From Girardia tigrina (lineage: Eukaryota), in NCBI GenBank assembly GCA_001938485.1, contig MQRK01246925.1, forward strand, positions 1-51,964: DNA of 51,964 nt, read 5' to 3'. Position numbers and translations under genes: made by a program. Each line of letters starts with the position of its first letter. Position 1 is the stretch's first letter. Below are positions 18,933 through 51,155 of this stretch, piece by piece. The notes below the pieces were generated by a model. That model did not search any database. It worked only from the letters and a program-made list of their open reading frames with translations, and was not told the DNA's origin.

Positions 18933-20275
18933 TAAATGAAAATATGTTTCAAGGCAGTTTTTAAAATGTGTTTAAAACTGTTAATTAAATCAAAATGACA
19001 GTCTAATAATTTATTAAATATTTAATAATATTTATAATTTATTTTTCTTTATTTATCTAATTGAAAATGAAAGTTTAGAATGAATTGGTTTAATCCTATC
19101 TGAATTATTCATGTCGAAGATTATAATTAAGTTTGATCGGTTTTTTGTTTGAAATTCGAGAGGATGTAAAAATGGGAGACTTGTTTTCATTTGAAAATAA
19201 AAATTAATTTTTAAATAATATATTTTTATAATGTAATTATTTGTGAAACATTTTGGCCAAAACTGTCAAATTAAAATATTAATTGACAAATTGGAATTAA
19301 ATCGTATTATTAATAAAATACTTTGATTATATATAATTCATAATCACAAATAAAATGGGAATTAGTCTCAGAAATTTATGTACCTTAGATCAAAATTTTT
19401 TAGGAAAGTTGAAAATATTATTATTATAGTATTATATTTTCGAAATGTATAATAAATTTTTCGTTTAACTATAACCATTAAAATGTGTTGAGAATTATCG
19501 AGGGATATAATCATATAAACTTTAAAATAAACTGAATTTATAACATTAAAATTATTAATAATAATGCTTGTTCCAGAATTTAAATTAAATTTATTTGCAC
19601 CTATATTTTTTTGTTAGTTTTTATTTATACTTAAAACATCTCCTTTCCAATTCAGATTCAAATCGTTTATCTTTCTTGAAAGCAATTGCTGATGTGTTCA
19701 TCACTTTTGTTCTATCTTGTATACATAAAAACATGATAAATAATTGATATGTTAGAAAATAGTAAATGAATTTTGAAAAATTATTATAATTAATTTGAAA
19801 ATTTGTTCGGGTTATTACGTTATCGGGTTGTTGTTGAATGAAAGTTGAGGAATGAAGGCAGCTGCTAGCGCAACAAGAGTCAAGTGCCCAATTCTATATT
19901 TATGTACAAGAAAAGAGAAAACAACGCTGTTTAAGATCTGCGACCATTTGAAGAGATCGAGGAATAACAAAGAAGCGAATCAAGAGTGTAGTGTTCACTA
20001 AATCGCATCAGCAGTAGCAACCAATTAAGAGTTTTTTTAAGTGATATGTAATTTAATTTTTTTGATTTTTAATTTTGAAAAAATTTCTTAATTGGATTTG
20101 CGACCCCTGAAATTTTTAAAATTGGAAAAATTCAGACGTACATTAAAAAATTGTAAAACAATAAACAATAAAAAAATTATTATCCAAAACTGTGTAGAAA
20201 TTAATGTAAAAATTGTTTGAATAATTGGCATTGTAAACAACATTTTTGAATTTAATAAATATTTTGATTAAAAAA

Positions 20276-21503
20276 TGAATTCCAATTTCTTTATTCAAAT
20301 CTGATGAACGACAAACGTCTCAATCACGTCACCGCGAACAATTTGCATTGGTTCGAGATCTGTTTGTTCAGTGATTTCTCGATCGTGGTGAACGAAGAGG
20401 GAATTCGCTGTCACAAATTCGTTCTTTACGCCGGTTCCGAATATTTCAAGGCATTCTTGAATTTCAATCCGAATGCGGAGCAAACGCAGCTGAGTGAAAT
20501 CGTGTCGGCGGTGGGAATCAGGAACTGTCTGCTGTTCCTATACAGCGCGAGTCGTGGCTCTAGCATGTTCAATTAGCACTGCATCGACAAGTTCGTGTGC
20601 GCCGACTATCTGCAGATCAGCGCGCTCAAGTCAGCGAGCGAAGAGGAAATTGCTGCCAACATCAACTTATGCAACGCGTTTGATGCAGAACCGAAATCGA
20701 TCGATTATTCGAGTGAAGAATCGACCAAACGCTCGAGTTAAATCGATGGGTCAAATGACCTGCTTCAATTCGCCGCAAATTCCGCGAAAAGTTTTGCGTA
20801 TTTAACGAACGGCGGTCTGATAGTCGGGATGGAGTTGTTGTCCGATTGCTGCTCGTCGACATCGATCGCTTCTTCCTCGGTCGATAGCGCCAATAATTCC
20901 AATAACAATCGAAAAACAATCACCGCCGGATCGAATTCGAAATATTTGATATCGAAAAAGCGAAGAGCCGAAGAACTATCGGAATTGTCGTCGATCCCGG
21001 TGAATTGCTATGGGAATATCGGAGCGGTGGATTTGTCGAGTTTCTCGGGGCCGCTACAAATCGCTCCGATCAACACCGATAACCACAGCAACAACAACAA
21101 TCAGAATCCCGTGAAATTCGTGTCCAATAACATCAACAACTCTATAATCGCCGCCAATAATCATTCGCTCATTCAAAACTCGTCAAATAACAACAGTGAC
21201 AAACAGAACAACAATCACCATCAAAACGGATTCTGTCACGCGGGTGGCAAATAGAACGTGACCGGGGCGGACACGACCGATATCGGTGACCCTGGTCACA
21301 TCAACGAGAAACAACGGTTTAAGCCTCAATAAGATGACAAAAGTTTCAGAATTTCTCGATCGAATCTTCAATCAATTGTGCACAATGATTACAACTCAAA
21401 AGCTTTCGACTTTCCAACGGACAACAACTAAAATATTAAGCATCAGAAAAATGTATCGAAAAATTCCACGAATCGCAGAAAGTTTTTTGAATGCGCCAAC
21501 TAG
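20276..21503 (+). pseudogene. BTB/POZ-domain protein pseudogene, antisense within LRP2BP intron 5
   Basis: GC-richer island. One frame from 20304 reads LFSDFSIVVNEEGIRCHKFVLYAGSEYFKAFL...LLFLYS...CADYLQISALKSA (BTB fold motifs), then an Asn/Ser-rich linker. In-frame stops at 20574, 20739, 21252, 21330, 21429 and 21501. Confidence 0.8.
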
Positions 21504-21800: not shown

Positions 21801-22941
21801 ATCTTCATTAATAATTGTTAAATGTGTTTAAATTTTTATAATTATACTGTCTATTTATGAAACTTTTATCTGAGAAGTTTATTAGACGTAAATCTTCGGT
21901 TAATATGATTACTAGAACGAAACCTGTGATAATAGTTCGCTTGACAAAATTTTCAAATTCGTGTTACATTTCGTATTACTTACGACTGCTTCTTGAAAAA
22001 CAAAATAATCTTACTTCAGGCCAAATTTATGGAGCTTCTTAATATTTAAATAATAAAAGATTAGTCGAGATACGTTATAATTAATTTTTGAATCTATTTT
22101 GTATTATTTCTTAATTTCTTGTTAACTTATGAAACTAAATCTAAATTTTGGAAGGTATTTTTACTAACTACAGAATGTGTTATATTCCGGAGTTAGTTTT
22201 AAATCTTTACTTCCTATCTTTATCAATATTACTTACTCCCAACAACCTTTATTCACAAACCGTTAATATAATATAGATATAATAATATTTAAATTTTCAG
22301 TTCATTATTTCTGATATTAAATTTGATTCTCGAAGATTTGATAAATCTACCGTATGTAATTTTAATATTATTGAATAGCAAAATTATTAACAATTTTTGT
22401 CTAAAATGTGTTTTTACATCTTCTGATTATACTGCGATTGAATAAATCAACTGTGCCAATATATTTGAATATATTTATATAAGAGAGGGCAAAGATCCAT
22501 GCTGGATCCAAACAACCATGGAAGAATAAAAAGGCATATATGCGATGGTATAGTGACTTGAGCGCTACCTTTATTTTCACCAACAGTATGGTATGTATAT
22601 GATTTCTTTCAACAGGGATGTTGTTGAAGTGTGGCATCAAAGATAATTTATTATTGAACAATTACAAGTTGGATCTTACAGAATCACTAAAGAATTTCAG
22701 AAAGAACAATATTCAAGCACTAAATTCGCCACAAATGCTGGTTGGTCATTGATGTACATGGAATTACATTAACGAGATACTGTCTGGTCCGTCAATGAAC
22801 AAGGCGACCATTCAAATTGTCGACACTTCAGGATAAATTACAAGAACATCGACAGAACTAAGGAAATCTGAGGCAAATAACTTTATAATATGTCTTCTTG
22901 TAACAATGCAAGTTACAAGTCGGTATCCAACTGCTTTAATA

Positions 22942-23900
22942 AGGTGTGTCCACTAAAAAAGTGCACAAGTTTTAAAACCATCATAACTTTTTAATTAGAC
23001 GTTCAAATTGACGGAAATTTGAAAAAAGACTATATCATAATAACACAATAATTATTTTATTATATCAAACTATTAAGGCCATAAGAGTTAGCAAGCATTA
23101 TTCTTTGTCTAAAAATTGCAAATAATGTCTTAAAATATAAATTGTTAAACTGCTTTGCTTTAGTTTTGATTCTGCGAATCAACTGGTCTTCAGAATCGGC
23201 AGTTCAACCCTTTTCATACACCTTCTCCTTTAAATGAGCCCAAAACTTTTGAATTTGGTGTATTTGGGGAGCACAAGGTGGATACGACTCATCATCAAGT
23301 ACAAAGTCGGTTTTGGTCTTTTCCACAACAATTTTAGCGAGATTTTGCAACCTGGCTTTCTGGCGAATAATCTGTGTCGGAGTAACCTTTGGGGCTTCTT
23401 TCCTCTTTCGAAACACTATGTTATTAGTCTTGAGCATCTTATGCACGTAAGACTTTGAAACATTCATTTCTCTACCTACCTTTCTCACACTTTGTCCAAC
23501 AGTCAAAGTTGCACGTTGAAGAAGTCTCTTCCTTTTGCCTGACGTCATTTTAACAGGTTTCCTTCCACATCCTACTTTTCTTTCAATGCTGCCGGTCGTC
23601 TCATAGCGTTGTATTATTGCATATATACCTCTTCTGGAAAAATGAATGCCAGTAAACTTTGTCACAGTCTCACTTTTACTGTGATTTTTGAAAAAATTGA
23701 TTATATCTTCATGTCGTTTTGAAATCATTATAATTGTCTCTAAAATAAAATATATTAAACCAAAAATTTTACATACCTGCTTTACTATTTCTAACCTATT
23801 AAAACAAATATTTAAATTCCAAATTTACGAAATTAAATAATATTACATTAAAAAGTTATGATGGTTTTAAAACTTGTGCACTTTTTTAGTGGACACACCT
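22942..23900 (-). mobile_element. Tc1/ITm-family DNA transposon, internally deleted (959 bp)
   Basis: Perfect ~54-bp TIRs aggtgtgtccactaaaaaagtgcacaagttttaaaaccatcataactttttaat; TA duplication at 22940-41 and 23901-02. Confidence 0.92.
23204..23728 (-). pseudogene. Truncated Tc1-like transposase (HTH intact, DDE core deleted in frame)
   Basis: Paired-like HTH and GxGRK linker; FVLDDESY joins directly to PPCAPQIHQIQKFWAHLKEKVY; premature TGA after EKG. Confidence 0.85.
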
Positions 23901-24333
23901 TAATACTGATGCTTGAATTATCATATATAAAGCTGACATAGGCCACTAAGGACCCACCTATTTTCAGGCTAATTATGCAAGAAAGTTTTCAGCGGATTAA
24001 TAAAAATTATTAATCAATTTAGTTGATTACATTTTATTTTTATTTTTTTAATTTTCCTTATTGTTTTTCGTAGAAAATGTTGAAAAAATACCAAAATTTC
24101 AATTAATTTATTAAAGCATATAAAAATTCTAAAATTTAAATTGAAAAGAAATTTATTAAAGTGAAATAACTTTTTACTAATATACTTGTTGAAAAAATAA
24201 TAAAAAAAGATGTCCTTTATTCCCTTTATTTCTTTCATTGGATTTTCAATACAGAGAAAATAATACAATTTATTGATGGAAATATAAAATAAATGTATAA
24301 ATTATATTAAATTGAAAACTAGGAAAAACTAAC

Positions 24334-25260: not shown

Positions 25261-25847
25261 CCCAACTTAAATTAAAATTTTAAACAAATTAAAATTAAAT
25301 AAAGAAAAGAAAACTTTAAATTAAATATAAAATAGCAAATAATTAAATTAAATAAAGTAAGAAAATTAAATTAAATTAATATATATATTTGTGTGTATAT
25401 ATCTACATAAATATTATGATAAACCATCATTTTCATCTGGTTTCATGATGGTAGTTTCAATAATCCATCCATTTTGTAATCGATAATTCGTTCTTAGTCC
25501 GCATAATAATGTCGAGTCTCTATAACGACGTTATTTTCAAAATTTTGAACAATTTTGGTGAAATTAATTTGAATGATCCAATCGAAATTGATTATCGAAA
25601 CTTGTGCATGTTTTGAGTGTGTGTGTGGAGAATTGCCATTGGAGAGGAGTATCGATGCGTGTGTGTGAGTTAATTGATTGGGTATTGTTGTGTTTGTGTG
25701 TCCATGGTTTAATTTATAAAAAAAATCAATATCCAATATTAAAAAGAAAAATAAAATCATTGTTTAAACCAGTTAATGTTAATGGTTTTTAAAAAAAATA
25801 AAACTTTGCAAATCTTCGAATTTTTTTTGATGATTAATAAATTCAAA

Positions 25848-26036
25848 ATGAATTGCAAATATTGTATTCTCTTGACTTATAACGAAAAAGAAAACCTGCT
25901 GATCGTTATCAATTTATTCGATAAATACTTAACCGAAAATAAAATTGCCTATGAATTAATTATCGTCGATGATAACAGTTCCGATGGAACAAACGATGCT
26001 ACGATTAATTTGCTGAAGATTTACGAAAATCAACCT
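25848..26036 (+). pseudogene. DPM1: N-terminal fragment of dolichol-phosphate mannosyltransferase subunit 1 (GT2), read through into unrelated sequence to 26414
   Basis: MNCKYCILLTYNEKENLLIVINLFDKYLTENKIAYELIIVDDNSSDGTNDATINLLKIY matches DPM1 KYSxLLPTYNExENL...YEIIIIDDxSPDGT. The conserved Pro is missing and the rest of the GT2 domain is absent. Confidence 0.8.
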
Positions 26037-26572
26037 TTATTTGACACTCTTAGCAGACATTGCAATTTGAATGTGCACCAGCATTTGATGGAGGGGTCTT
26101 ATAATTCGTCCGAGACGTCAAATTTAATCCCTGATTATTGTCTCGTTCACTTTGGCATTATTCTCAAAATGATTCTGAGCTCGGTGATTGATGAAAGTCT
26201 CCTCTCCTTGATGCCGGTTTTAAAATGCTGTTTTAGAATTGAAACAGAGAATTACAGAGTTTCGAAATCAAAATTTTGGATAGAAGAAATATCTTTATGG
26301 TACATCGATTCGAGTCTTTTCGAGTATTCAGCAGAAAAACAATTTCTTGGACAGTTTTGTAATCTGGCAGATATGAGCGCCGATCCGACGACTTGCAAAA
26401 CGAAAGCCAACTAACAAAAAGACTCTCTCTGAGATACAACAAATGTGAATATAAGAAAGTGAATTTCAAATCAAACTGTGAAAAAAATAATGTACCAAAA
26501 ATCAGGAATTATTTTAATCTTTAATTTCTATAATTTAAAGTTCAAAGTTAAAATCTCATGTATTAGTTTTAC

Positions 26573-27489: not shown

Positions 27490-28600
27490 TTGGCCGTCAA
27501 GTATGAAATTTGTAGATCTAAAGTTCATTTTTTGATAATTTACTAATACAAACATTTATGTCATTCATCAAACTATGCACCAATATTATCGATACACTTT
27601 TGCCATTTCAAAGGCACCTGGTTGAGGCTATTTGAATAATAATTTGGAGGGTGAGAATTTATAAATTCTTAAATGCCATTTTTATGGTATCTTCAGATTT
27701 TAATTTCTTTCCTATCCAAATGTTGTTCGAATTGAGGAAGGAATGGTAGTCAGCTAGGGTTAGGTAAGGTGAGTATGGAGGATGATGCGGAAGAATTCAA
27801 GTTCCTGTAGTTTTATCACTGTGTTAAGTGCAGTATGTGATTTTGAATTGTTGTGGAGCAAGATGTGAGTCGCCCTGTTTACAAAAGGCGGCTGTTTTTC
27901 TTTTAGTATCCTCTTCCAATTGGCTGCAGTAGACATCTGCTGTGATCGAGGAATCAGGTTACAAGAAGTCATAATGGATAAGTCATAATAATTGGACAAC
28001 CAAACACTCACTATCATATTCCTAAGATGAGTGTAGTACTTTGGATTGTGTTTTAATGCTTGGTTCGTGTTCATCCAGCTTGCTGAACGTTTGCGATTAT
28101 CATATTGGATTCAATTTTCATCACAGAGGACGATTAGACTCAAAAAGTTATCACATGTATAAGGAGAAAGCATAATCAAACAAACATCTATATGCTTTTG
28201 TTTCTTCTTTTCATTCAACTTATGTGGAATACAATTATACAACTTTCTTACTTAGCGATAAATCATAAGCATTTAGTGATGGATCCCTCTCCTGGTTTAC
28301 TTTCAGTTCGTCATTTTCTGAACCAATATGAGACTACCTACTGCAAAGTAGCATTGTATTCATTACACTATTGATGTTTTGGATGGTTTCTGATGCTGAG
28401 GTTTCACGTAGGAACTCGTCTTTCATTATAGTTTGAACTTCTGCATTTTTCATTTTTTAAAATATTGATTATTAAAACAAGTTATTAATATTTTACTTAA
28501 TTTTTATTGATGTGATTGATATGCAAAATATGCAGTGATCAAAATGTTAAGTCATTGTCAAACTATAGTTATTTGAATCTATTGTAATCATGTCTATTAA
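27490..28600 (-). mobile_element. Decayed near-full-length mariner
   Basis: The minus strand shows an MKNAEVQTIMKDEF start (~28453), IQYDNRKRSASW, ILLHNNSKSH and PYSPYLxxADYH motifs in shifting frames; TIR remnant ttggccgtcaagtatgaaatttgtag. Confidence 0.85.
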
Positions 28601-32432: not shown

Positions 32433-32934
32433 TTGTACATCACTCCGGGTAGTTTCTGTGAAACTAGGTAAAATATTAAATTTTAACGAAGTTTAATAAA
32501 ATGATTATTCAAAAGAAAATACAATATTTAAAAACAATATATATAATTAAATACAAAAATTAATATAGAATATGTGAAAATAGTTTATGTTTATAATAGG
32601 TTTTAAATTAAAAAAAAATAAATACAATATAACCTTTCAAAAATAATAAATTAACATATGTTTATATTTAAAATTATTTTGATATTATTGGTTTGTGCAA
32701 GGAAAATTAAAAATCGTTCCTCAGAAATTTAATTAGGTAAATCCTATTTAAATAAGTGAGGCACTTTACCTCGGAAAATTTACAACAATATTGGTAAATT
32801 ATTGTATTGCTCAACGACACGTTCAATCCTCTCAAATACTTTGGCATAAATGTGCGATGAGAATTGTGGGAATTCTTCACCTGCTCGAATGCGCTGCGGG
32901 TAAAATCAAAAACGAATTAAAAATATATTTAAAA

Positions 32935-33148
32935 AATATATGCACTTCAACGGTATGACTGTAATCATTAGATCACTGCTTATGTGTAAGTCTAGACTTT
33001 TTATTAAACTCATGTGGAATATACTTATCCAAATTTTTCACTTTATCAATTTGAGTGATTCAATATTTTTGCTTTGTAAGACCAAAAGTTAGCGATAAAT
33101 CATGAGCACTTTGTGATGGATCCTCCACGGTTATCTTCAGTTCGTTAT
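32935..33148 (-). mobile_element. Mariner internal fragment; the matching 5' end/TIR is at ~34840-34988
   Basis: Similar to 28220-28315 (ttagcgataaatcat...gatggatcc...ttcagttcgt); 34918-34988 matches 28551-28596 and the family TIR. Confidence 0.65.
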
Positions 33149-33790
33149 TGGGTACGTCGACTTTACCGCGGTGACTTTACCGCGGACGACTTTATCGCGG
33201 GCGACTTTACCGCGGAAAATTTACAACAAAATTGTCAATAAGTGAACAATGTCATATAAAATATGAATAACATTTTTTAATTATGTAATGATAAAACAAT
33301 AAATCATACAAAGGTTTTAATTTTAAAACATAAATGGATAAAAAATTTCAGATTGACATGACATTTAATTATTCTTTTTATTAAAAAAATAAACAAACAA
33401 CATATGAAAAATTAGTAAATTCCAAATTTAAAAAATTCAAATAATATTTTAGAACAAATGAATAACACACGAAAAAAATGTAATGTATAAATAGAAGAAA
33501 GATAAAAAAACATTAAACTTGATACATTAAATTAATGGAATAGTAAATATATACTTTCATCAAAAAAGTTTAAATTATGAGCAACGCCTCTAAGATAATT
33601 CAATATTGGTAAATTATTGTATTGTTCAACGACACATTCAATCCTCTCACTTACTTTGGCATAAATTTGCGATGAGAATTGTGGGAATTCTCCACCTGCT
33701 CTAATGCGCTGCAAATTTAGTTCAACAAAATCTTGTTCATTACGAAATTGATTTATCGAATTATAAACAGTTGGGTGATTGCAAGTGATA
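33149..33790 (-). mobile_element. MULE/MuDR 3' end: TIR with tandem subrepeats and transposase C-terminus
   Basis: gggtacgtc followed by four gactttaccgcgg-type units (33159-33215). The minus strand reads ITCNHPTVYNSINQFRNEQDFVELNLQRIRAG...LNYLRGVAHNL, a typical animal MULE C-terminus; a partial second copy lies at 32787-32897. Confidence 0.75.
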
Positions 33791-35689
33791 GAATTTTAAG
33801 AAAAAGGCGGTGCTCATAATTTAAACTTTTTGGATTAAAGTATATATTTACTATTCCATTAATTTAATATATCAGTTTAATGTTTTTTGTATCTTTCTTC
33901 TATTTACACATTACATTTTTTTCATGTTATTCATTTGTTCTTAAATGTTATTTGAATTTTTTAAATTTGGAATTTACTAATTTTTCATATGTTGTTTGTT
34001 TATTTTTTTAATAAAAAGAATAATTAAATGTCATGTCAATCTGAAATTTTTTATCCATTTATGTTTTAAAATTAAAACCTTTGTATGATTCATTGTTTTA
34101 TCATTACATAATTAACAAATGTTATTCATATTTTATATGACATTGTTCACTTATTGACAATTTTGTTGTAAATTTTCCGAGGTAAAGTGCCTCACCTATT
34201 TAAACAGGATTTACCTAATTAAATTTCTGAGGAACGATTTTTAATTTTCCTTGCACAATCCAATAATATCAAAATAATTTTAAATATAAACATATGTTAA
34301 ATTATTATTATTTTTGAAATGTTATATTGTATTTAATTTTCTTAATTTAAAACCTATTATAAACATAAACTATTTTCACATATTCTATATTAATTTTTGT
34401 ATTTAATTATATATATTGTTTTTAAATATTGTATTTTCTTTTGAATAATCATTTTATTAAACTTCGTTAAAATTTAATATTTATTGTGATATTTAGTTTT
34501 TTTTCTAATTTGTAATTACTTTTAAAGTTTCATAAATTCTGTTAAAATATTTTTCGGATCTTATATTTCATTCGTTTTCTAATCTATTTTATTTATTAAT
34601 TTTATTAGTTTAAATTTCATTCGTTTTTTAAATCTATTTATTTAAAAATTTCATTATTTCAAATTTTATCTAAAAATTTTTTAAAAATTATTAATATTGA
34701 AACTTTATACCGCATTTTATTGTCTTTACTTATTTAACAATACATTTCTATTTTTACTCTCATAATTAAATATTTATTTAAAATGTTTTTTTATCTTTAG
34801 TTCAAAAATTTAAATGAGACTTGAAAATCCTCACGTGGTTGATTAATTTTTATTGATATATTCAATAGTCAAGATATGTATCAATAAAACAAAGAAAACT
34901 GAACAACAAAATTTTAAGTCATTGTAAAATTATATTTATTTTAATCAATTGTAATCATGCCTACAAATTTCATACTCAACAACCTAATATTATGTGATTT
35001 TATAAATATTCAATTATTTGATGGCAAAACGATTTGTTTGTATATCCATCAAAATAGTAACTTTATCCAAAAAGCTTCTGAAAATTTATATTATTGCGTG
35101 ATTCTCTAGTTTGAGAGAATTTGTCAATATTTTGTCAAGTGTCTCTCCAAAGACAATTATTGAATCTAAGGATTCTCAACTATTTCACAACCACTTCAAA
35201 ACTACTTACACCATAAAATGTGTGAGTATACTGTAATGGGTACATTAAAATTACATTAGAATTAATATAATTGAAAAAAAAACAGAAGTGGAAAAAATTG
35301 TGACAGAAATAAACGAAACGCTTATTTAATTCGCAGTAGGTTTTTTTCGATTTTTTAAATTCGAGAATTTTTACTGGTATAATTGATCAATCTGAAACAT
35401 TTAGAGGTTGTAATACCATTTTCCTAAAAATTAAATTCATCATCGTCAGATGTACCATTTGCGAGGATGTCGTAGTAAAGGGTGCACGACCATATGATTT
35501 CACATTATTTGATTTTGAATGCAGAGTATAAATTAGCTACCCAACTTAGAATTATGACTACGAATTACACATTTCGTTAAGGAGGTGATATAACTTTCAA
35601 ATCAGTATTCCAAGTACGATGAATATGAAAATTATTTCTCAATCATATTAAATTTCGGATATGTTAAGAAATAAATCCCCAACACTTCT

Positions 35690-39132: not shown

Positions 39133-40266
39133 TTAGGTTGGTCGAAACATAATGGCGGTTTTGGGACACAAACTTCAAAGACGTGCAAATTCACAGAAAC
39201 AAAAGTTTATTAATCAAAGTATGAACCGTTGGCATCAATACATTTTTGCCAACGAGAAACAAGTTGTTTTATTCCATCAGCATAAAATGCATCGGTTCTC
39301 GAAGCGACGAATTCTTAGAAGGCATTTTGTGCATCATTTTGGTTTTTACAAATGCCTGAAAAAGTAGAAGTCCGTTGGCGAGAGGTCTGGTGAATATGGT
39401 GGACGAAGCAGGGTTTCATAGCCCAACTTATTAAGCTTTTGAAGAGTCACTTTTGAAATATGAGGTCTAGCGTTATCATGAAGAAGGATGGGACTTTTTC
39501 GATTGACCAATCCCGGACAAAGGGTTTTGAATTTTTTAGGCATTTCATCAATTCCATAACAGTACCTCTCCGCTGTGATTGTTTCACCTGGATTCAAGAA
39601 ACTATAGTGGATGATTCCAGCATCACACCACCAAACTGTCACCATAATCTTACGGGGTGTTAGTTTCGGTTTTGNNNNNNNNNNNNNNNNNNNNNNNNNN
39701 NNNNNNNNNNNNNNNNNNNNNNNNNNNNNNNNNNNNNNNNNNNNNNNNNNNNNNNNNNNNNNNNNNNNNNNNNNNNNNNNNNNNNNNNNNNNNNNNNNNN
39801 NNNNNNNNNNNNNNNNNNNNNNNNNNNNNNNNNNNNNNNNNNNNNNNNNNNNNNNNNNNNNNNNNNNNNNNNNNNNNNNNNNNNNNNNNNNNNNNNNNNN
39901 NNNNNNNNNNNNNNNNNNNNNNNNNNNNNNNNNNNNNNNNNNNNNNNNNNNNNNNNNNNNNNNNNNNNNNNNNNNNNNNNNNNNNNNNNNNNNNNNNNNN
40001 NNNNNNNNNNNNNNNNNNNNNNNNNNNNNNNNNNNNNNNNNNNNNNNGAAAATTGCTCGAATTTTAATTTTTTTCCATTATTAATTTAGCACCGTAAATA
40101 TTCTAAAAAATAACAGCAATATGTTAATAATGGCTATAGGAATATACAGGTAGGCATAAGATTTCAGATAATATCTAACACTAATGCATTTAAACTTATA
40201 TACATATCAAAGTAGATAAACAAAGTATAAAGCTCAAAAACCGCCATTATTTTTCGACCAACCTAA
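39133..40266 (-). mobile_element. Cecropia/Hsmar1-type mariner (middle in N-gap)
   Basis: TIRs ttaggttggtcgaaa(c/a)ataatggcggtttt with TA duplication. Transposase 39346-39645 reads MVTVWW...ILLHDNARPH...PPYSPDLSPTDFYFFRHL (DD34D), with a premature stop. Confidence 0.93.
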
Positions 40267-41128: not shown

Positions 41129-42565
41129 TTATTACTAACGGATTTTTGTAATAAATTGAAAGTTGTCACTAGTTGTTATGGAAATGACCTCGATGTGATT
41201 ATTATAACAAAAGTCGATAAATAGGATTAATTAATCTGTGATATTTATTTTTAATAAATATTTCAAAATCGGTTTTTTTATTATAAAAATCTTAATTTTT
41301 TTCGAATTTATTATTTATTTTTATTTTTTAATTCGAATTGAATGAAAGAAATATTTTTTTAAATTGAAATTTCTTAAGAAATTTATTTCTCGAATTATAT
41401 GTCATTATAAAAACTGTTTAATTTCAGTTGGAAATTTTTCTGTCATAATTATTGAAGATTTTGATTTATTGGATAATGAAATGTACAAATTTTTTCAGAT
41501 AGATTGTAAAATTATGATTTTATAAGCATTTATTTTCAACCATGGTTAAATGTTTTTACTTTGCTATTAATAGTAAATATAAATTACTAAAAAATCAATT
41601 AAAATATGATCAATTTTAATAATTTTTAATTGTTAATTATCTATTTGAATTTTATTACATTATGTAACTATAAAATCTAATAAAATATGATAACAAAATC
41701 GTAACAAAATATCAAAATATAATTATAATCATAGCTTAAAATAATAGTCAGCAAAGATTTTGTCAGCGAAATTGTTCGTACAATAAATGAAACATAATTC
41801 AAAATAAAATTACATTGCTATTTATGCTCTAACCATCCTAAAGCGAAATATCTTTTAAACTTAAAATTCTTCAGCAAAAGCAAGACTTGTTAATTTTTTT
41901 TCAATGCAATCGCTTATCGATTATAATAAATCTTGTGAATTTGTAGCCAGCGAGATAATAAATTACGATTTCAAACTGATAAAACATGACGAAGCATTTC
42001 ATTATTAACTTCTTGTTTCAGAAAAGAGATCAAAGTTCAGGTTTACGGAAAACAGTGTGATAAGCAAATAGTTAAAAGATTTGAAAATGCATAACTTACA
42101 TTGAAGATTTACACGAATCAGAATACTTATATACATATTTACGAAAGAAACTTGATTTTGAGTCAGCAATTTAGTCAAAAGGGAATACTAACTCTACAAA
42201 GTTAGAATTTGCGAATATAAAATTTAAGATTGATAAAAAATGGCAGCTATAAATATACTTAATAAATATCATAAATGTAATTAATTTTTATAATTAGTTT
42301 TATTTTGAGTAAATATGTTAAATATTGGTTTTGTATTAAGTGAAACTTGTTAAAATTAATTTCCTTAAGGTTATTTTATCAAAAACAAATATAAATTTAA
42401 TTATTGATAAATTATAGAGATTTATTTTCTTTTGTTTTCTAAAATTCAAATGACTTTTTGTAACACGCAAAAAGTTTATTTTCAAAAACAATGTTTAATT
42501 GATAATATTTAAACAAAATATTTATCAAAAAAGCATATATTAAATATTTGAAATAATCAAAATAT

Positions 42566-45466
42566 CTAATATCCAACACTCCCATCAGATTCGTCCACAG
42601 AAGAATCTGAATCCACAATGTAATCATTTAGATAAGACGGTCTTTGTCTTTCTCTTCTAGGCCTATTGTTCAATGATTGTTCCTCTTGTGTTTGATTGTC
42701 TGGTAATGATGCAGTTTCCTCCATATTCATATAGTATGACTTGGAATTTTCAAACAAGTCAGGCTGTCTAGGTCGAATGTCTGCTATATGTCTTGGACCG
42801 CAAAAGCCGTTGCAATTTACTAGATATTTCCTTTGATCTATTCTCTTCACGACAACAACCTTGGCCCATTGCTGTGTACATGGTGTACTGTTTTCCGGTT
42901 TTACCCACACTAATTGATTCTCTACATAATCTGGATTTCCACAAAACGGTTCCTTTTCACTTCTTTCAATTATATCTAACCCTATGGGCAAATAGCTATA
43001 CAGCGCCGAGCTTGGTGTTTCTTTTCCTTCAGATGGTGTGTTATTATACCACCATAAGGCTTCCAATATGCTGATATTTGATCTGGACGCAATTCTTTTG
43101 ATTGTTCTAAGATTCCTTTCTATTATTCCGTTGCAGTTAGGTCGATTGATGGCACGATACATGACTCGAACGTTCCACTTTTCCATTAACTTGTTGAATT
43201 CTAATGAATGAAACGTGGTATAATTATCAATAATTAGTTCCTTGGGAGACCCGCGTTCATAGAACAAACTTGAAAATTCTGAGACAATTGACTTGATGTC
43301 TTCAGCCTTAATTAATTTACATATCGCAAAGCAAGAAGGACCACAATCGATTTTACTTAAAATTTTTTGTTGATTGTACTTTGTAACATCCGCAGCAAGT
43401 CTTGTCCAGTTTTCGTTGACACTCAGCCTACCGGTTTTCCATTTTACGGGTGCCGGATCGATAGATTGACATTTTTGACATCTTGAAATCAGATCCTTGA
43501 TATCCGCGTTTGACACACCTATTCCTTGCTTCGCACATAGATATCGCATTCTGTTTGCGCCTAAATGACACTTATCATGAAGTTACTGCAGCTTGAGTAG
43601 ATCGTCCGTAACCGATAAAAAACAATTGCTTCTTTTTAATTGTCTTGGGATTCTTGTCAACTCGTCCGCCTTGTTATCTTCGCTATTAACAAACTCGATC
43701 TTCAACTCGATTTCATACTCCTGACACAGTTCCTTGATCATCGACAGTCTTCGTTTTATTAAAAGCTCAGATGAAGCCTTGGTATTTAATTTTTCGCGAT
43801 CTGAGATTGTTGTGGTTACCCACGAAACTACTGACTTATTATCCGATTTTACTATCACGCTCCTTAAACCCCATTTCACACATAAGTTTAAACCATTTAC
43901 AACTGCTTCTAGTTCTGCTACAACAATATGTCTAGAATCATCAGTTTTTCTCAACTATGATGCGTCCTCGATTATGTTCCCTTGACTTCTAACACCACAC
44001 CAATGGCTATTGAATTTGCTTCGCACCATATAATACCTTCCCTGCAGACATCAATGGCCCATAAACCTCTGCAAGGATCACTCTCCCTCACTATCTTTAA
44101 AACACATTTAATCTTCTCGAATAATTCTTCGTTTATCTTCTCATCCCACTTTCCCTCACTAAGTCGGTTAAGATATGAACATGATGGACGTAGTCAATTA
44201 GCTACCGGATGTATTCCTACTAATTGTCCACATAACGAATATATCTCACGACGTGAAATTGATTCCACATCCAACTCTTCCCTTACCTGATTGTCCCTTT
44301 TGAATCTCGCTACATGTTGGTCCTTAAAGACTTTCATTCCTAAAACTCGAACTTCGTTGGCTTGTGACAGATTTTCCGGTTTCTTACATTTGAGACCGAA
44401 GTTATTGAACACTTTTTCTACTTCTTCAACAGAAATGAAACTTTCATTTACATAAATATCATCAATATAATTGTCTGTATTTTCACTCATCCTGGTGTCA
44501 GAGTTCAGAATCCACCTGACGATTTCGGTCATTATAGTTGGTGCAATGTTTAAACCAAAACCCATTCTAGTTAAAGCATATTTCTTGTTATTAATGAAAC
44601 AAGATTGGTAACGCCACATGTCCTTATGAACATGAATCTGCATGTACGCCTCTGACAAATCAAGCATTGAAAAAGTCGAACCCCTACGTCGCCAATCACG
44701 GAGCTTTTCTAAACATATGTCCGCAGAACCACTATAAACGTCCACGTAATTGTTTAATTTTCTAAAATCAAAAATGGGTCTTATCTTGGACTTATTAACC
44801 TGTAATATTCAAAATATCGGTATGGATCCTATCGATTTACCCATTTCCTTCTCATTGTACTCGATTAGATAACCCTTTTCTACTCAACCGTCTAAAATTT
44901 TCAATGTTGCAGCATCTTTTAATTTGTTGTCCTTAAAAACTGACTGACGATTCGGAAGATGACTCGGAGCCTCACTTTTCCAATTCCATTTAATCGACCA
45001 ACTTTCCTTAACTCAATTTCAAAATTATGCTTTTTTATACCAACAAGAGGCGCATCCGATGCAGTACAACTCAAGCTACTATCTATCCCTATAATTTCTT
45101 CTTCGCCGAACTCAATAACACCCTTATTAATTCTCACACCGCCCAATTTAGCTATGATATCCATGCCTATTAAGATCCCTAGACCATACGACAAATGTTC
45201 CATGACCGGACATTCCACCCTAATGATCCTACCATTTATATTCAGCCGCACTTCACCAGAACCCACTCTAACACCCTTTCCATGTGCGAAAACCATACTT
45301 TCTCCGTCAGAAAACAACATACAATCACTAACTAACCTTTTTAAAACAACCGTTTTCGAACAACCAGAATCAATCAACGCTGTTGCTGACCTGTCATTTA
45401 CTGTGACGATCATCGTCGGCAACGCCTGTAACTCTGAAGGGAGAGAGCCGGCGCCTACAAACTGTC
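42566..45466 (-). mobile_element. LTR retrotransposon pol in PR-RT-RH-IN (Ty3/Gypsy) order, disrupted
   Basis: Protease ALIDSGC (44919-45422); RT LDLSEAYMQ, RMGFGLNIAP, YIDDI (44194-44745); RNase H HIVVAELEA, SDNKS, NKADELTR; integrase HDKCH..CQKC, D..DNY..NGIIER. gggag followed by TGTTGG at 42578 may be the PPT and 3' LTR start. Confidence 0.92.
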
Positions 45467-46571
45467 ATATTTACTATTTCATTTTCTGTTGTTTTATTTG
45501 TGTTTGTATTGTCTGTTTGTATTGATTGTGATTCTGTTTTTGTTGTTGTTTGGGTTATTTTATTTACTGATGAAGGGTTTGCTTGGATTGATTTTTCGAT
45601 CGTAAATACGGTGGTGATTGCTTTCGTCTGCGTTGTTTGTGATTTGAGTAACTTAGTCTTGTCTTCGGTTTGTGTTCGGTCATCTTTTGAAATTCTGATT
45701 GTATCGTTTGATTGTGTGTAGTTATCTACTAATTGTTTTGTAAGTGTGTGTTCTGTTTGTGACTGTACGTCTTTATTCGCTGATTTCTTACAAAGATCAA
45801 ATTGATTTTTTGATTGTAAAAATTTTTCTTCTGTTTTTGTATATTTGATTGAAGAGAGTGGTTTTTTTGGATAAGATTNNNNNTTTGTAGAATTTCTGTT
45901 GTATTCTTTTGTATTTGTTACATTTGTTTTTGTAAACATATAATTGTTTGCATTTTTCTTTAGTTTTGAATTGTAAAATGTTCGTATTCTAGGTTGGTTT
46001 CTCATCAATTCTTTTCTTGATTTGAATGAGCACGGATTTACGCAATTGAATGCCTTTTCATTGAACTTTTTATGATACCAGCATAAATTAGTCTCTCTCT
46101 CAATTGNNNNNNNNNNNNNNNNNNNNNNNNNNNNNNNNNNNNNNNNNNNNNNNNNNCTCTCTCAATTGGTTTGTTCGGATTGTGATATTTGTGATTTTCA
46201 CGTGACTCGATGAAGTACTTTGATTTAATTTCGTAATTTTCTTTTCTTAGTTCTGTAATTTCTAATTTAAGTCTTTTATTTTCCATCTCCATGTTTTCTA
46301 ATTTGGTGATTATTTGCTTAAGTAGATGTACATTGGAATTTTTTATTGTGTTGTTGACGTCTGGTTTGTTATGATGAGTTTTTTCTTCGTGTTTGTACTG
46401 TGGTATGTGTGTATTGTTGAAATTAATAGTTAGGTTATTTATATGATTTGAATATTTGTTTGTTTGTGTTTGGATTGTATTTTTTATTGTAAAAATAAGT
46501 TCTTTGTATGAATGAGAGTTTATTTTGTGTGGAGGCATTAAGGTATTTTTGTGAAAGTGAATATAATGCAA
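45467..46571 (-). CDS. Gag-like ORF of a second LTR element (coiled coil, CWYH zinc motif, tandem TQT motifs), 3'-truncated
   Basis: Merging the ctctctcaattg overlap across the 46107-46156 gap joins ORFs 46038-46571 and 45394-46008: ...PIERETNLCWYHKKFNEKAFNCVNPCSFKSRKELMRNQ... Confidence 0.65.
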
Positions 46572-46634
46572 GGTCGTAAATGTTTCTTGTGATGTAGTGT
46601 TATGTGATAGAGGTCGTACGTGGGTACAATTGTA

Positions 46635-46695
46635 ACTTCTGACACCAATTTGTAAAAATAGAGATTTGAAAGGGTTGGCAAATCTCTATTTTTAC
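46635..46695 (-). promoter_or_regulatory. LTR 3' end (...TTTTACA), primer-binding site TGGTGTCAGAAGT and a U5 hairpin
   Basis: The minus strand reads ctctatttttaca-aat-tggtgtcagaagt; a perfect 17-bp inverted repeat lies at 46652-46668 / 46679-46695. Confidence 0.7.
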
Positions 46696-47378
46696 CAATA
46701 AATAAAAGAATACTTATCAAAGTCGTAAACGTATTAATAAAAAAAACAATCAGTGAACAAAAATATTAAAATAATTAATAAAATAAAAAATAAAAATAAC
46801 CTCATTTAATAAGAATTTATTAACATTAATAAATACATCCAACTAATAATAAGATTATTATCACTCGATTATTTCTTTGATAATCTCTATGCTAACGATT
46901 ATTCAAATTAATTGTTTGATTACATATTTTCTGTTGAATTGCATTTTTTCCAAATTTTACAAAATAAAAGGAATGAAAGTGGTTTTATTAGATTCGTTTT
47001 AATTCGTAAATAAGGCGCTAATATTGAGCTCTAATTTTTGTGATAAAATTNNNNNNNNNNNNNNNNNNNNNNNNNNNNNNNNNNNNNNNNNNNNNNNNNN
47101 NNNNNNNNNNNNNNNNNNNNNNNNNNNNNNNNNNNNNNNNNNNNNNNNNNNNNNNNNNNNNNNNNNNNNNNNNNNNNNNNNNNNNNNNNNAACTGTTTTC
47201 TAAATAATCTCTGATTACACAAATCGTTGCCAAAAGATTCAAAATTTCCTTTCGATTCGCTGAGCAATTATTCTTTGATCTTATGATAAAACTGCATTCA
47301 ATAATTTTATGAGAAGAATAAAAAACATATCTCCAGCTAATATTTGTGTTTCATACACTGAATGGAAAACGTGAACGA

Positions 47379-47838
47379 TGTAGTAAGAGACTACACATAT
47401 ACATATACATACAGATTATTGATCAAGTAAAAAAAAGTAAAAATATCGTTGTTGTTGCCGCGGTCTGTGTCGCTCTGTTAACGCCTCTTTTCTTTTCACT
47501 GACATTATTGAGGTAATAACAGTAATCATTGATGTTGCATTCACAAAAGCGCGATTGGATAAAATAAACAANACAAATTCCACAAAATATAGCCAAATAC
47601 CCTCTTCTTTCAGCCGCAAATCACCAATGACAGTTTCAATAATTTTAGACTTTTCATGTTGCACCTGTCATCGTTCACGTCCTAAAATCGCAGTCTCTCT
47701 CTTGGGAGATAGAGAGCTCGAAAAACAACGAACATAACGACAAGCAAATCACACACCATGAACCAGCACAATCACACACAAACAAAAATGTAAACTGATA
47801 TGAGACACTGTGGTGTCTGAAGTAGTGGGTGCACTACA
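47379..47838. mobile_element. Probable solo LTR (460 bp)
   Basis: Termini TGTAGT...ACTACA, GC-richer than the flanks, with an internal PBS-like tggtgtctgaagt; no target-site duplication visible. Confidence 0.45.
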
Positions 47839-48787: not shown

Positions 48788-49610
48788 TATACTCGTCGCG
48801 ATAGCTTGTTATGATATACATCAAAATATAAATGCCAACGATGCGAAAAAGATATATTTAATTGCACTACAGGACAAAACACTCGATTTCAAAATCACGC
48901 ACTTTTACACTTCAGTTAAACAGTTAAACAAATAATCTCAGTATATTTAGTTAATCATTTTCTTCATCCCATATACTAAGCATGATTTAATGGTGATATA
49001 ATAATTAATTTGTAATGGTCAATCTATTATTTTCTTTTTTCTTTTGATTAAATTGTTATTTAAAGTGTTATTGTACTAACTTAATTTTTAAACTTTAAAT
49101 ATAATTTTTAATATTTTCGGTAAAAGCTTAACGAAAAGAAATAATTTTTATTTAATTTTATTTAAATATTTATAACACAACCTTCCACAATAGAATTGTG
49201 GGTGACACTATTCATAGCTTTTGTCTAATGTAAACGAATAAAGAATTAGTAATTTAGTACCTGAAAAGTAACATTTATATTTAATTAGAGTTGAATAAAA
49301 ATAGAATTTAATAGGTGGACTTTAATAAAGACATTTTCTAACCAGACATCTTTTCATCCAAATTAATTTTTAAAGTATAAAGAATTTTTTGTAACTTGAG
49401 GTATACGAAATTTTAATAGTTTACCATTTTTAAAAATTCAAGCCTTAGAAAGATGTATTGAAAACGTCAATTTTCTACATCTCTACACTTGTTACGAGTA
49501 GTTTACAAAAAGAAAGTACTTATAAAGTAAAATATATAAATAAAATCTAATTAATATATAAATATATAATGAAAATAACGGCTATTTTTGAATATTAAAT
49601 TTATTCGCAA

Positions 49611-49647
49611 TACATACGCGTTTCACCATTTCGGCATCTTCAGTGCA
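49611..49647 (-). ncRNA. Minimal type I hammerhead ribozyme (PLE-type)
   Basis: UGCA CUGAAGA U GCC-gaaau-GGU GAAACGC GUA/UGUA: intact core, palindromic ACGCGU stem III, GUA triplet. Confidence 0.75.
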
Positions 49648-50499
49648 ATGAAATAAAGTGATTAATTACTATTTATTTAGTTGAAAAACTATTACATGAT
49701 ACGTCTCAAAAACATGCTTTTTTTCCTTTTTTTTAAGAAAAAAAGAAGAAAAGTATTTTAATGATATTTAAAACAAGTTAATAAAAAGTCTAGTGACAAT
49801 TTAAGCGCAATTTCCTTATGTTATTCGGTGCCCAAATATTAAAACGTTTATATCAGTATTTGACTATGATTAATTTTTTGTGACCGAACGAAAGGATATT
49901 TTTGAAAACTTTCTTCGGCAAATTGTTCTAAATTATTGCAGGAATCGATTGGTAAATGTTTCAAGTCGCTATATAAAATTAATTAATTAATCCATATGAA
50001 ATTAATAGTTGTCTATTAATTATTAAAACGTTTATATCAGTATTTGACTATGATTAATTTTTTGTGACCGAACGAAAGGATATTTTTGAAAACTTTCTTC
50101 TGCAATATTGTTTTAAATTATTGCAGGAATCGATTGGTAAATGTTTCAAGTCGCTATGTGATCTGGTTGCCGAGATATAGGCCAAAAACTGCATTTTTTC
50201 GAGGTTTTTTGGATTTTCCGGGAAATCCAGGAAGGAATTCCGGGAATTTTTTTGCCCACAATCATCCTCCGAACTTGCTTAACATATTTGCTTTTGGAAC
50301 TAGCCCTCGATATTACTTCGTTGAGGAGGAGATACGACTTAAAGCTGCGGACACACATCCATCCACACAGAAATAACCAATTAATAATCGCAATTGTCAG
50401 TATGGAAATTGCGCTAAAAAGGAAAAAAAAGCATGTTTTTGAGACGTATGATGTAATAGTTTTCAACTATATAAATAGTAATTAATCACTTTATTTCAT

Positions 50500-50536
50500 T
50501 GCACTGAAGATGCCGAAATGGTGAAACGCGTTTGTA
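50500..50536 (+). ncRNA. Minimal type I hammerhead ribozyme (PLE-type)
   Basis: Same fold as 49611-49647, with a GUU triplet. Confidence 0.72.
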
Positions 50537-51155
50537 TTGTGAATAAATTTAATATTCAAAAATGGCCTTTGTTTTCATTATTAATTAAAATGCCATTATC
50601 AGTTCTATATATATATATATATTAAAATATATAAATATTATATTAATTAAAAATATAATTTTTAAGTAAATATTATATTGAGTGAGGAAAATATAACCGC
50701 TGTTTTGAATTAGTGTTTATTGTAAATTCTGCTTCGAAGAATCATTCGAATTAAAATTTTCAATTATATCAAAAAACCAATTTTTAATTCCAAGAAAATG
50801 TATTCATACACCAAATCAAAATTATTAAAACAAAATTAATTGTTTTTATTTTTTTATATTAGTTTTTAAATTTCTGGAAAAAATATTATTTAGATTACCA
50901 AACCCATATAATATAAACATTTTAATAAATGTCACTATTTTAATTTTTTTAACTAGGTTTTTTTTAATTTTCTATGAAACTTTTACGCTAATTTAATAAA
51001 AATTTAATTATAATAAAATCATTTTAAATATCAAAAATTTCAGTTTAACTTTTAATCCCTATCAGTAATGTTGCTTGTCAACGGTTATTTATTCCTTAAC
51101 ATTATATAATTATTATTAATAAGAAGAAATTTTTAAGTGTATTTTATAAATAAAC

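Follow-up and report, generated by a model that had tools for sequence, protein, structure and literature searches.

The stretch of DNA analysed here (the window: 51,964 nucleotides of contig MQRK01246925.1 from Girardia tigrina) carries on its minus strand the 5' half, and only that half, of a copy of an LTR retrotransposon family that we call family A, joined to a broken pol of an unrelated Gypsy family (Table 1). A first-pass annotation had proposed that an LTR end and a PBS precede an ORF on this strand, and they do: the LTR ends in ...TTTTTACA at 46651 (window, minus strand, direct reading), the PBS follows at 46647-46635 and the first Met of the ORF lies at 46538. Both ends of the window LTR match the full copy L160, which has paired LTRs and a 5-bp target duplication; alignment of the LTR middle to fetched copies was tried and none aligned. 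The complement pattern of the PBS is found at the 3' end of two tRNA-Leu(cag) genes predicted by ARAGORN in L254. An apparent antisense PBS near 47830 was rejected, being the start of the element's own LTR; such a start, resembling the 3' end of tRNA-Leu and forming an inverted copy of the element's own primer site, is seen in some LTRs of the superfamily described below (window 47838-47810, L156:2854-2877).

Table 1. Features of the truncated family-A copy and its neighbour in the window.
Feature	Position	Strand	Basis
Family-A 5' LTR (TG...CA), ~1.19 kb with a 140-N gap inside it	46651..47838	-	ends are the LTR ends of L160
PBS, complementary to host tRNA-Leu(CAG)	46635..46647	-	two ARAGORN tRNA-Leu(cag) genes
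First part of the ORF, with an N/H-rich head and a stretch resembling a coiled coil (46325-46224)	46157..46538	-	translation
Assembly gap (50 N), overlap of two contig ends	46107..46156		family copies and public-run contigs
CHCC zinc knuckle, CX2HX9CX3C	46030..46083	-	CsRn1 signature; likeness to autonomous gag knuckle
PRIRTFYNS motif	45967..45993	-	kept across lineages; possible helper-protease site
Assembly gap (5 N), undersized	45879..45883		length in subfamily copies
Seven Gln-anchored LC8-type motifs (96 aa), 5/7 passing the rule set	45505..45792	-	translation, shuffles, flanks
Junction, family A cut and joined to unrelated Gypsy family	45463..45466		match ends of both families
Broken protease-RT-RNase H-integrase with a short terminal repeat, from an unrelated Gypsy family of high copy number	42458..45463	-	Pfam

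The 5' part of the ORF (shared-variant dN/dS 0.34 and 0.42) contains a putative coiled coil at 46325-46224, recognised from its residue pattern, for which Pfam returns sub-threshold hits only. Further on, the frame is interrupted by two assembly gaps, and the continuous ORF that had been foreseen across them holds at one and is uncertain at the other. The same 12-mer flanks the 50-N gap on both sides and is present once in 26 of the 29 measurable copies, and contigs of the public runs X1, X2 and X6 skip 62 bases there, meaning that this gap merges as predicted. The 5-N gap is undersized, standing for 92 bases in five of seven subfamily copies and for 93 and 96 in the remaining two, so that the frame of the window copy across 45879-45883 is only putative. 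Between these gaps lies the knuckle, rightly compared at the outset with those that end certain Gypsy Gags: it follows the CX2HX9CX3C signature of CsRn1-type elements (as excerpted from PMC2582038). An N/K-rich linker then separates PRIRTFYNS from the seven-motif array.

In the window, family A breaks off at about 45464. Family-A copies that reach this point cease matching at 45463-45465, where copies of the unrelated pol family begin to match; the junction 22-mer has a single occurrence in the host genome (G000), and no contig among those listed from public runs bridges the junction at 45464. Recombination, deletion or misassembly, occurring once, produced the junction. The neighbouring pol family numbers 1760 candidates in the host genome and has its own gag upstream in the copies fetched; 120 bp at 42578-42458 correspond to the region 5' of that gag. 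The downstream pol was therefore rejected as family A's own.

What the window lacks can be read from other copies. A DNA search of the host genome gives 813 candidates for family A, 40 of which were scored, mostly at 85-100% identity. Natural whole copies encode ~460 aa (P0001), in the order coiled coil, CHCC knuckle, TQT array, integrase-CTD-like domain. The array had been taken for the tail of the protein; whole copies instead run ~130 aa beyond the cut point of the window, up to the integrase-CTD-like domain with its GPY motif, and the PPT and then the 3' LTR lie downstream of this domain. Among the 24 best-scoring copies that include knuckle as well as tail (chosen by score, with N gaps read as X), 14 keep the frame open from one to the other. 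L160 is a complete 3.9-kb element; at the three loci considered for target duplications, it has 5 bp, L123 keeps 4 of 5 bases and L118 is unclear. At 14 of the 15 listed loci, the two LTRs share 90-100% identity, while the repeats of L235 are no clear LTR pair. Paired LTRs, PBS, PPT and target duplication (L160 and others) bear out the retroelement origin first proposed and are the marks of a non-autonomous LTR retrotransposon, to which are added the lack of RT and integrase core and the existence of an autonomous relative with matching termini.

No capsid, protease, RT, RNase H or integrase core is found in family A, in line with the first-pass annotation, which saw no capsid-like domain. Pfam gives no significant match on the whole protein or on the proteins of the related lineages B', C, E, F and G, and an atlas search with P0001 no usable match. 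The ORF is not a plain Gag, as first supposed, and is better called a Gag-remnant/LC8-array/integrase-CTD protein of a non-autonomous superfamily, the array having replaced RT, RNase H and the integrase core. Two RNA metatranscriptomes carry family sequence as contigs; the unrelated pol is covered too, and with no silent control these contigs are no evidence of expression. An extra TQT site stands outside the array, in the N-terminal head, in several lineages (P0001 residues 14-21; N-terminus of lineage F).

The tail is the most constrained part of this protein. Its dN/dS is 0.12 within A for shared variants versus 0.58 for singletons, and 0.10-0.25 between lineages, showing that the C-terminal domain is under strong purifying selection. 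A profile comparison matches it to the C-terminus of the presumed helper's integrase (E 9.5e-5, probability 59%), and AlphaFold models it as a beta barrel (pLDDT 77, with one of five models confident) whose ten best Foldseek matches are, without exception, chains of HIV/SIV integrase (lowest E 3e-3, no hit reaching 0.001). The GPY/F motif and a beta barrel, here a predicted one, are the features of the integrase C-terminal (SH3-like) domain, and the tail is predicted to adopt this fold. Pfam has no hit on the tail domain; the sole PDB sequence match of the tail profile, DnaK (E 0.06), was taken as chance.

An autonomous family in the host genome, with a DUF7041-like gag, protease, RT, RNase H and integrase, has the PBS, the PPT and the TGTAGTGCCCTACT LTR start in common with family A, and its gag knuckle is identical to that of the window at 13 of 26 residues (E 2e-8). 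From the shared termini only, we infer that this family is the likely helper of family A and would mobilise it. None of the fetched loci is an autonomous element whose integrase contains the array (best 150 of about 1550-1690 candidates per search). The PRIRTFYNS motif is common to lineages A, B, B', C, E, F and G, recurs between protease and RT in the autonomous relative, and may resemble a retroviral cleavage site.

Searches with tail and knuckle uncover at least ten lineages in this one genome that share termini, with tails 32-79% identical from one lineage to another. Lineages B, B', E, F and G have the layout of A. C1 and C2 keep the gag and protease of the helper and then pass to array and tail just after TFYNS, the very point at which the helper continues into RT; it follows that the array takes the position of RT, RNase H and the integrase core. 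D1 and D2 have termini and tail in common with the rest and carry in their single ORF an RRM (Pfam E 2e-15) and a Q/P/Y-rich stretch. The nearest atlas clusters of this RRM are DAZ-like (score 0.90-0.91), and DAZL is its top single-RRM match in the PDB, multi-RRM proteins ranking ahead. Lineage D (L166-L169, L185-L189, L197-L203) yields 152 matches in the best 150 scored of 604 candidates. In the tail tree the grouping of A with C alone is resolved and the deeper order is unsure. B' and F (L107 versus L236) have an array block in common, at 61% identity, so modules have been swapped between lineages. Most G copies (L238-L251 versus L168) have a D-type head with a knuckle in place of the RRM, and fragments of a further lineage, H (L221:1213-1644), show three TQT sites ahead of a related tail. 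Protein searches return four proteins (P0002-P0005), similar to lineages A, B and B' of the host genome; neither these searches nor a metagenome scan (266 pattern matches) confirmed relatives beyond the known lineages.

The seven motifs named in the first-pass annotation are all present, their Gln anchors at 45759, 45714, 45672, 45630, 45585, 45552 and 45519 spaced by 15, 14, 14, 15, 11 and 11 aa, with linkers of 3-7 aa beyond the 8-residue motif; their composition suggests that the array lies in a disordered region. As is expected of a multivalent LC8 client, five of the seven combine a Gln anchor with T/I/V/S and favoured residues at -3/-4, judged by our own coding of the preferences at -4, -3 and +2 in PMC6607443, which we applied in place of LC8Pred. 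Motif 2 (VDNYTQS) violates the LC8 rules and has His at its anchor in 8 of 34 copies, motif 3 fails the -3 rule as coded, and motifs 5 and 6 decay in lineage C. The array is more than the A/C-rich codon bias that had been feared. In 5000 residue shuffles, its 10 anchor-type sites compare with 2.1 expected and its 6 rule-passing sites with 0.8 (both p 0.0002), and residue shuffling gives 0.47 expected for the 3 strict TQT (p 0.01); among 5000 codon-position base shuffles, none reaches the anchor or the rule counts.

The pattern extends to the other lineages. With one representative per lineage, all eight knuckle- or gag-type lineages have 3-7 [TIVS]QT sites (36 in total) against 0.5-1.2 expected, each with p < 0.03. 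Residues flanking the sites played no part in choosing them, and they are enriched: D/E stands at -4 in 17 of the 36 (background 0.14) and K/R at -3 in 18 (0.15), a small residue at -3 occurs in none and a hydrophobic one at -4 in a single site, with no enrichment at +2. This pattern at -4 and -3 agrees with the flank preferences published for LC8 (PMC6607443, in excerpt). The sites are non-independent across lineages, as the linkers of A-C align with each other and so do those of B-B'-F-G; when homologous sites are grouped by eye, D/E at -4 (9/22, p 0.002) and K/R at -3 (11/22, p 0.0001) remain enriched. Strand bias contributes some sites, given that 16 off-frames hold 11 [TIVS]QT sites, three of them in one off-frame of the A linker. 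For some members the array is dispensable, as judged from the L122 piece, which shows no site enrichment, and from the RRM lineages, whose two representatives have no site (other copies of D1 contain one or two; D2 has none).

Whether the anchors are selectively conserved, the check that had been asked of family copies, has a mixed answer, and one that is only suggestive. Six of the seven anchors show no shared change in 36-38 copies, and five to six are still Gln in lineage C, where identity elsewhere is about 40-45%. The constraint on motif cores relative to spacers is not significant, however (p 0.14 within A, 0.085-0.19 against C), and the dN/dS of the array, 0.51, is near the 0.58 of singleton changes, that of the spacers being near 1.

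Canonical LC8 genes are present in the host, whose AT-rich genome of 1.43 Gb holds 66 matches to the LC8 family (PF01221), some canonical and others highly divergent; a host LC8 lies at L043:1489-1755. A co-fold of motifs 3-4 and four host LC8 chains scores 0.42 versus 0.01 for the best control, with contact agreement of at least 47% and partner pLDDT of at least 38; by the tool's own account, 51 of 78 solved pairs attain the mark applied, as do 2 of 108 mismatched ones, and it grades the pass as weak. The score may also reflect likeness to solved LC8-TQT complexes; Q-to-A changes were not among the controls. LC8 fails to bind many TQT peptides (PMC6607443, in excerpt). We consider it quite probable that the array binds host LC8.

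On balance we favour the following reading. The ORF of the window would be what truncation has left of the only gene of a CsRn1-related, non-autonomous element, in which an array of LC8 motifs joins a coil and knuckle to an integrase-CTD-like tail, the whole being likely zipped by LC8 and aiding the use of a helper. The element would be transcribed and primed as its helper is; its protein would pair via the coiled coil, and the knuckle would hold the element RNA. LC8 dimers could then zip two chains into a stiff duplex, so that a pair of integrase-like tails faces nucleic acid or the helper integrase, and packaging or integration of the element's own RNA might thereby be favoured, with a benefit to transposition. 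The helper protease may cut at TF/YN, freeing the part made of array and tail. More speculatively, and with clearly less confidence, the protein could be a new accessory of a parasitic LTR superfamily, composed of an exchangeable RNA-binding head, an LC8-zipped rod and a decoy integrase CTD that captures the helper particle or intasome. That the head would then be, by turns, a Gag knuckle, a whole Gag-protease or a captured germline DAZ/Boule RRM is an equally tentative extension of this idea.

LC8 binding could also serve transport, the array linking element RNA to dynein and directing it towards the centrosome, the nucleus or germline granules. Every lineage does have a putative RNA-binding head, including the DAZ/Boule-like RRM of D, yet the RRM lineages are those with the fewest sites, and motifs that occupy both LC8 grooves would leave none for dynein. 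Foamy virus Gag reaches the centrosome via dynein complexes (PMC7828637, in excerpt); LC8, in contrast, is described as duplexing its clients (in the available part of PMC12057147), and this, together with short linkers like those of the Nup159 and KANK1 rods, favours dimerisation or a rod, leaving transport unlikely in our view. We are far more sceptical of an LC8 sponge, that is a counter-defence factor weakening LC8-dependent transposon silencing. Such silencing is known in Drosophila, where PICTS/SFiNX requires LC8/Cut-up (PMC7861614, in excerpt), and both the high copy number and the up to about nine sites per chain that the superfamily attains would suit a sponge; against this, many LC8-family genes, if the 66 host matches are a guide, would make titration hard, and selection is strongest on the tail rather than on the array.

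The array might owe nothing to LC8 and be a low-complexity spacer, left by A/C-rich strand bias and old internal duplications between coil, knuckle and tail as the selected parts. We judge this improbable. In its favour are the base bias (146 A and 69 C among the 288 bases of array DNA), the three sites in one off-frame, spacers with dN/dS near 1, cores without significant constraint and the absence of sites from D2; against it stand the residue and codon-position shuffles and the enrichment at -4 and -3, and pieces of the autonomous family with equal base bias (gag and two pol pieces, 1788 aa) contain no rule-passing site. Core codons are mixed, e.g. ACG CAG ACG, and units are only 9-17/24 bases alike; an origin of the array by tandem repetition was rejected, TRF finding no repeat over it. 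Finally, the ORF leads directly, in the window, into protease-RT-RNase H-integrase, as it would if it were the true gag of the adjoining pol. To this, or to a domesticated host gene, we assign next to no chance, considering the separate gag of the pol family in the copies fetched and the junction unique in the host genome, as well as the 813 first-look candidates, paired LTRs and own PPT of family A.

How does family A relate to known systems? In knuckle, GPY/F and LTR-PBS-PPT layout, it is like CsRn1, PwRn1 and AgCR (Ty3/Gypsy), whose clade is defined by the CX2HX9CX3C knuckle, GPY/F at the integrase C-terminus, a tRNA-Trp primer and a 4-bp duplication (PMC2582038, in excerpt). Family A has tRNA-Leu and 5 bp instead (L160; 4/5 bases in L123), possesses a TQT array and is devoid of capsid, protease, RT, RNase H and integrase core; the full-length helical Gag and PR/RT/RH/IN pol of the clade are absent from it and present in its autonomous relative. 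With knuckle and GPY shared, and primer, duplication and pol differing, it is CsRn1-related and not a member. The interaction of a retroelement with LC8 has precedents: in the Sirevirus study the LC8 partner is reportedly an extension of Gag. Sireviruses (Ty1/copia) are LTR retroelements reported to interact with LC8-related proteins (Havecker, Gao and Voytas 2005), as predicted for family A, the former being autonomous plant Copia elements and the latter a non-autonomous Gypsy element. Likewise, the Gag of prototype foamy virus binds LC8 or dynein (Petit 2003, as cited in PMC7828637), docking through the coiled coil CC3 on a full capsid protein, whereas family A would dock via a Gln-anchored array. 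Nup159, ASCIZ and KANK1 similarly combine several motifs of mixed strength, short linkers and a low-complexity region, and a rod or duplex is expected (10.1101/2025.07.16.665182, in excerpt); these are host genes for which binding is measured, that of family A being predicted, and no homology is shown. A literature search on LC8, TQT and LTR retrotransposons, with subscription journals and repeat databases outside its scope, listed no description of the family-A architecture, and the available parts of PMC11410931 and PMC4858218 contain nothing on family A.

The usual reading of non-autonomous LTR elements is that they are passive deletion products. LARD, TRIM and gag-only elements keep LTR, PBS and PPT and depend on a helper; here, by contrast, the ORF is a selected Gag-remnant/integrase-CTD fusion with exchangeable modules, and at least ten lineages keep this selected protein, which is neither Gag nor Pol. 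Eight of the at least ten carry the predicted docking array for a host hub, and lineage D carries a probably captured germline RNA-binding domain, amplified to at least 150 copies. If LC8 binding holds true, the superfamily would offer a testable case of a retrotransposon parasite competing for the machinery of its helper, and a natural series of LC8 arrays, from 0 to about 9 sites, for the study of multivalency.

Other features lie elsewhere in the window. At 20268-21254 (+), an exon with a BTB domain (Pfam E 3e-9) leads into open frames rich in N/S and is likely a host gene, and a fragment of glycosyltransferase family 2 is fused to unrelated sequence at 25755-26414 (+). Remnants of Tc1/mariner-like transposases are found at 22937-23905 (with 59-bp terminal inverted repeats), 27760-28110 and 39346-40077, and long nested inverted repeats with arms of up to 306 bp, probably foldback or MITE-like, at 32471-34482 and 49556-50591.
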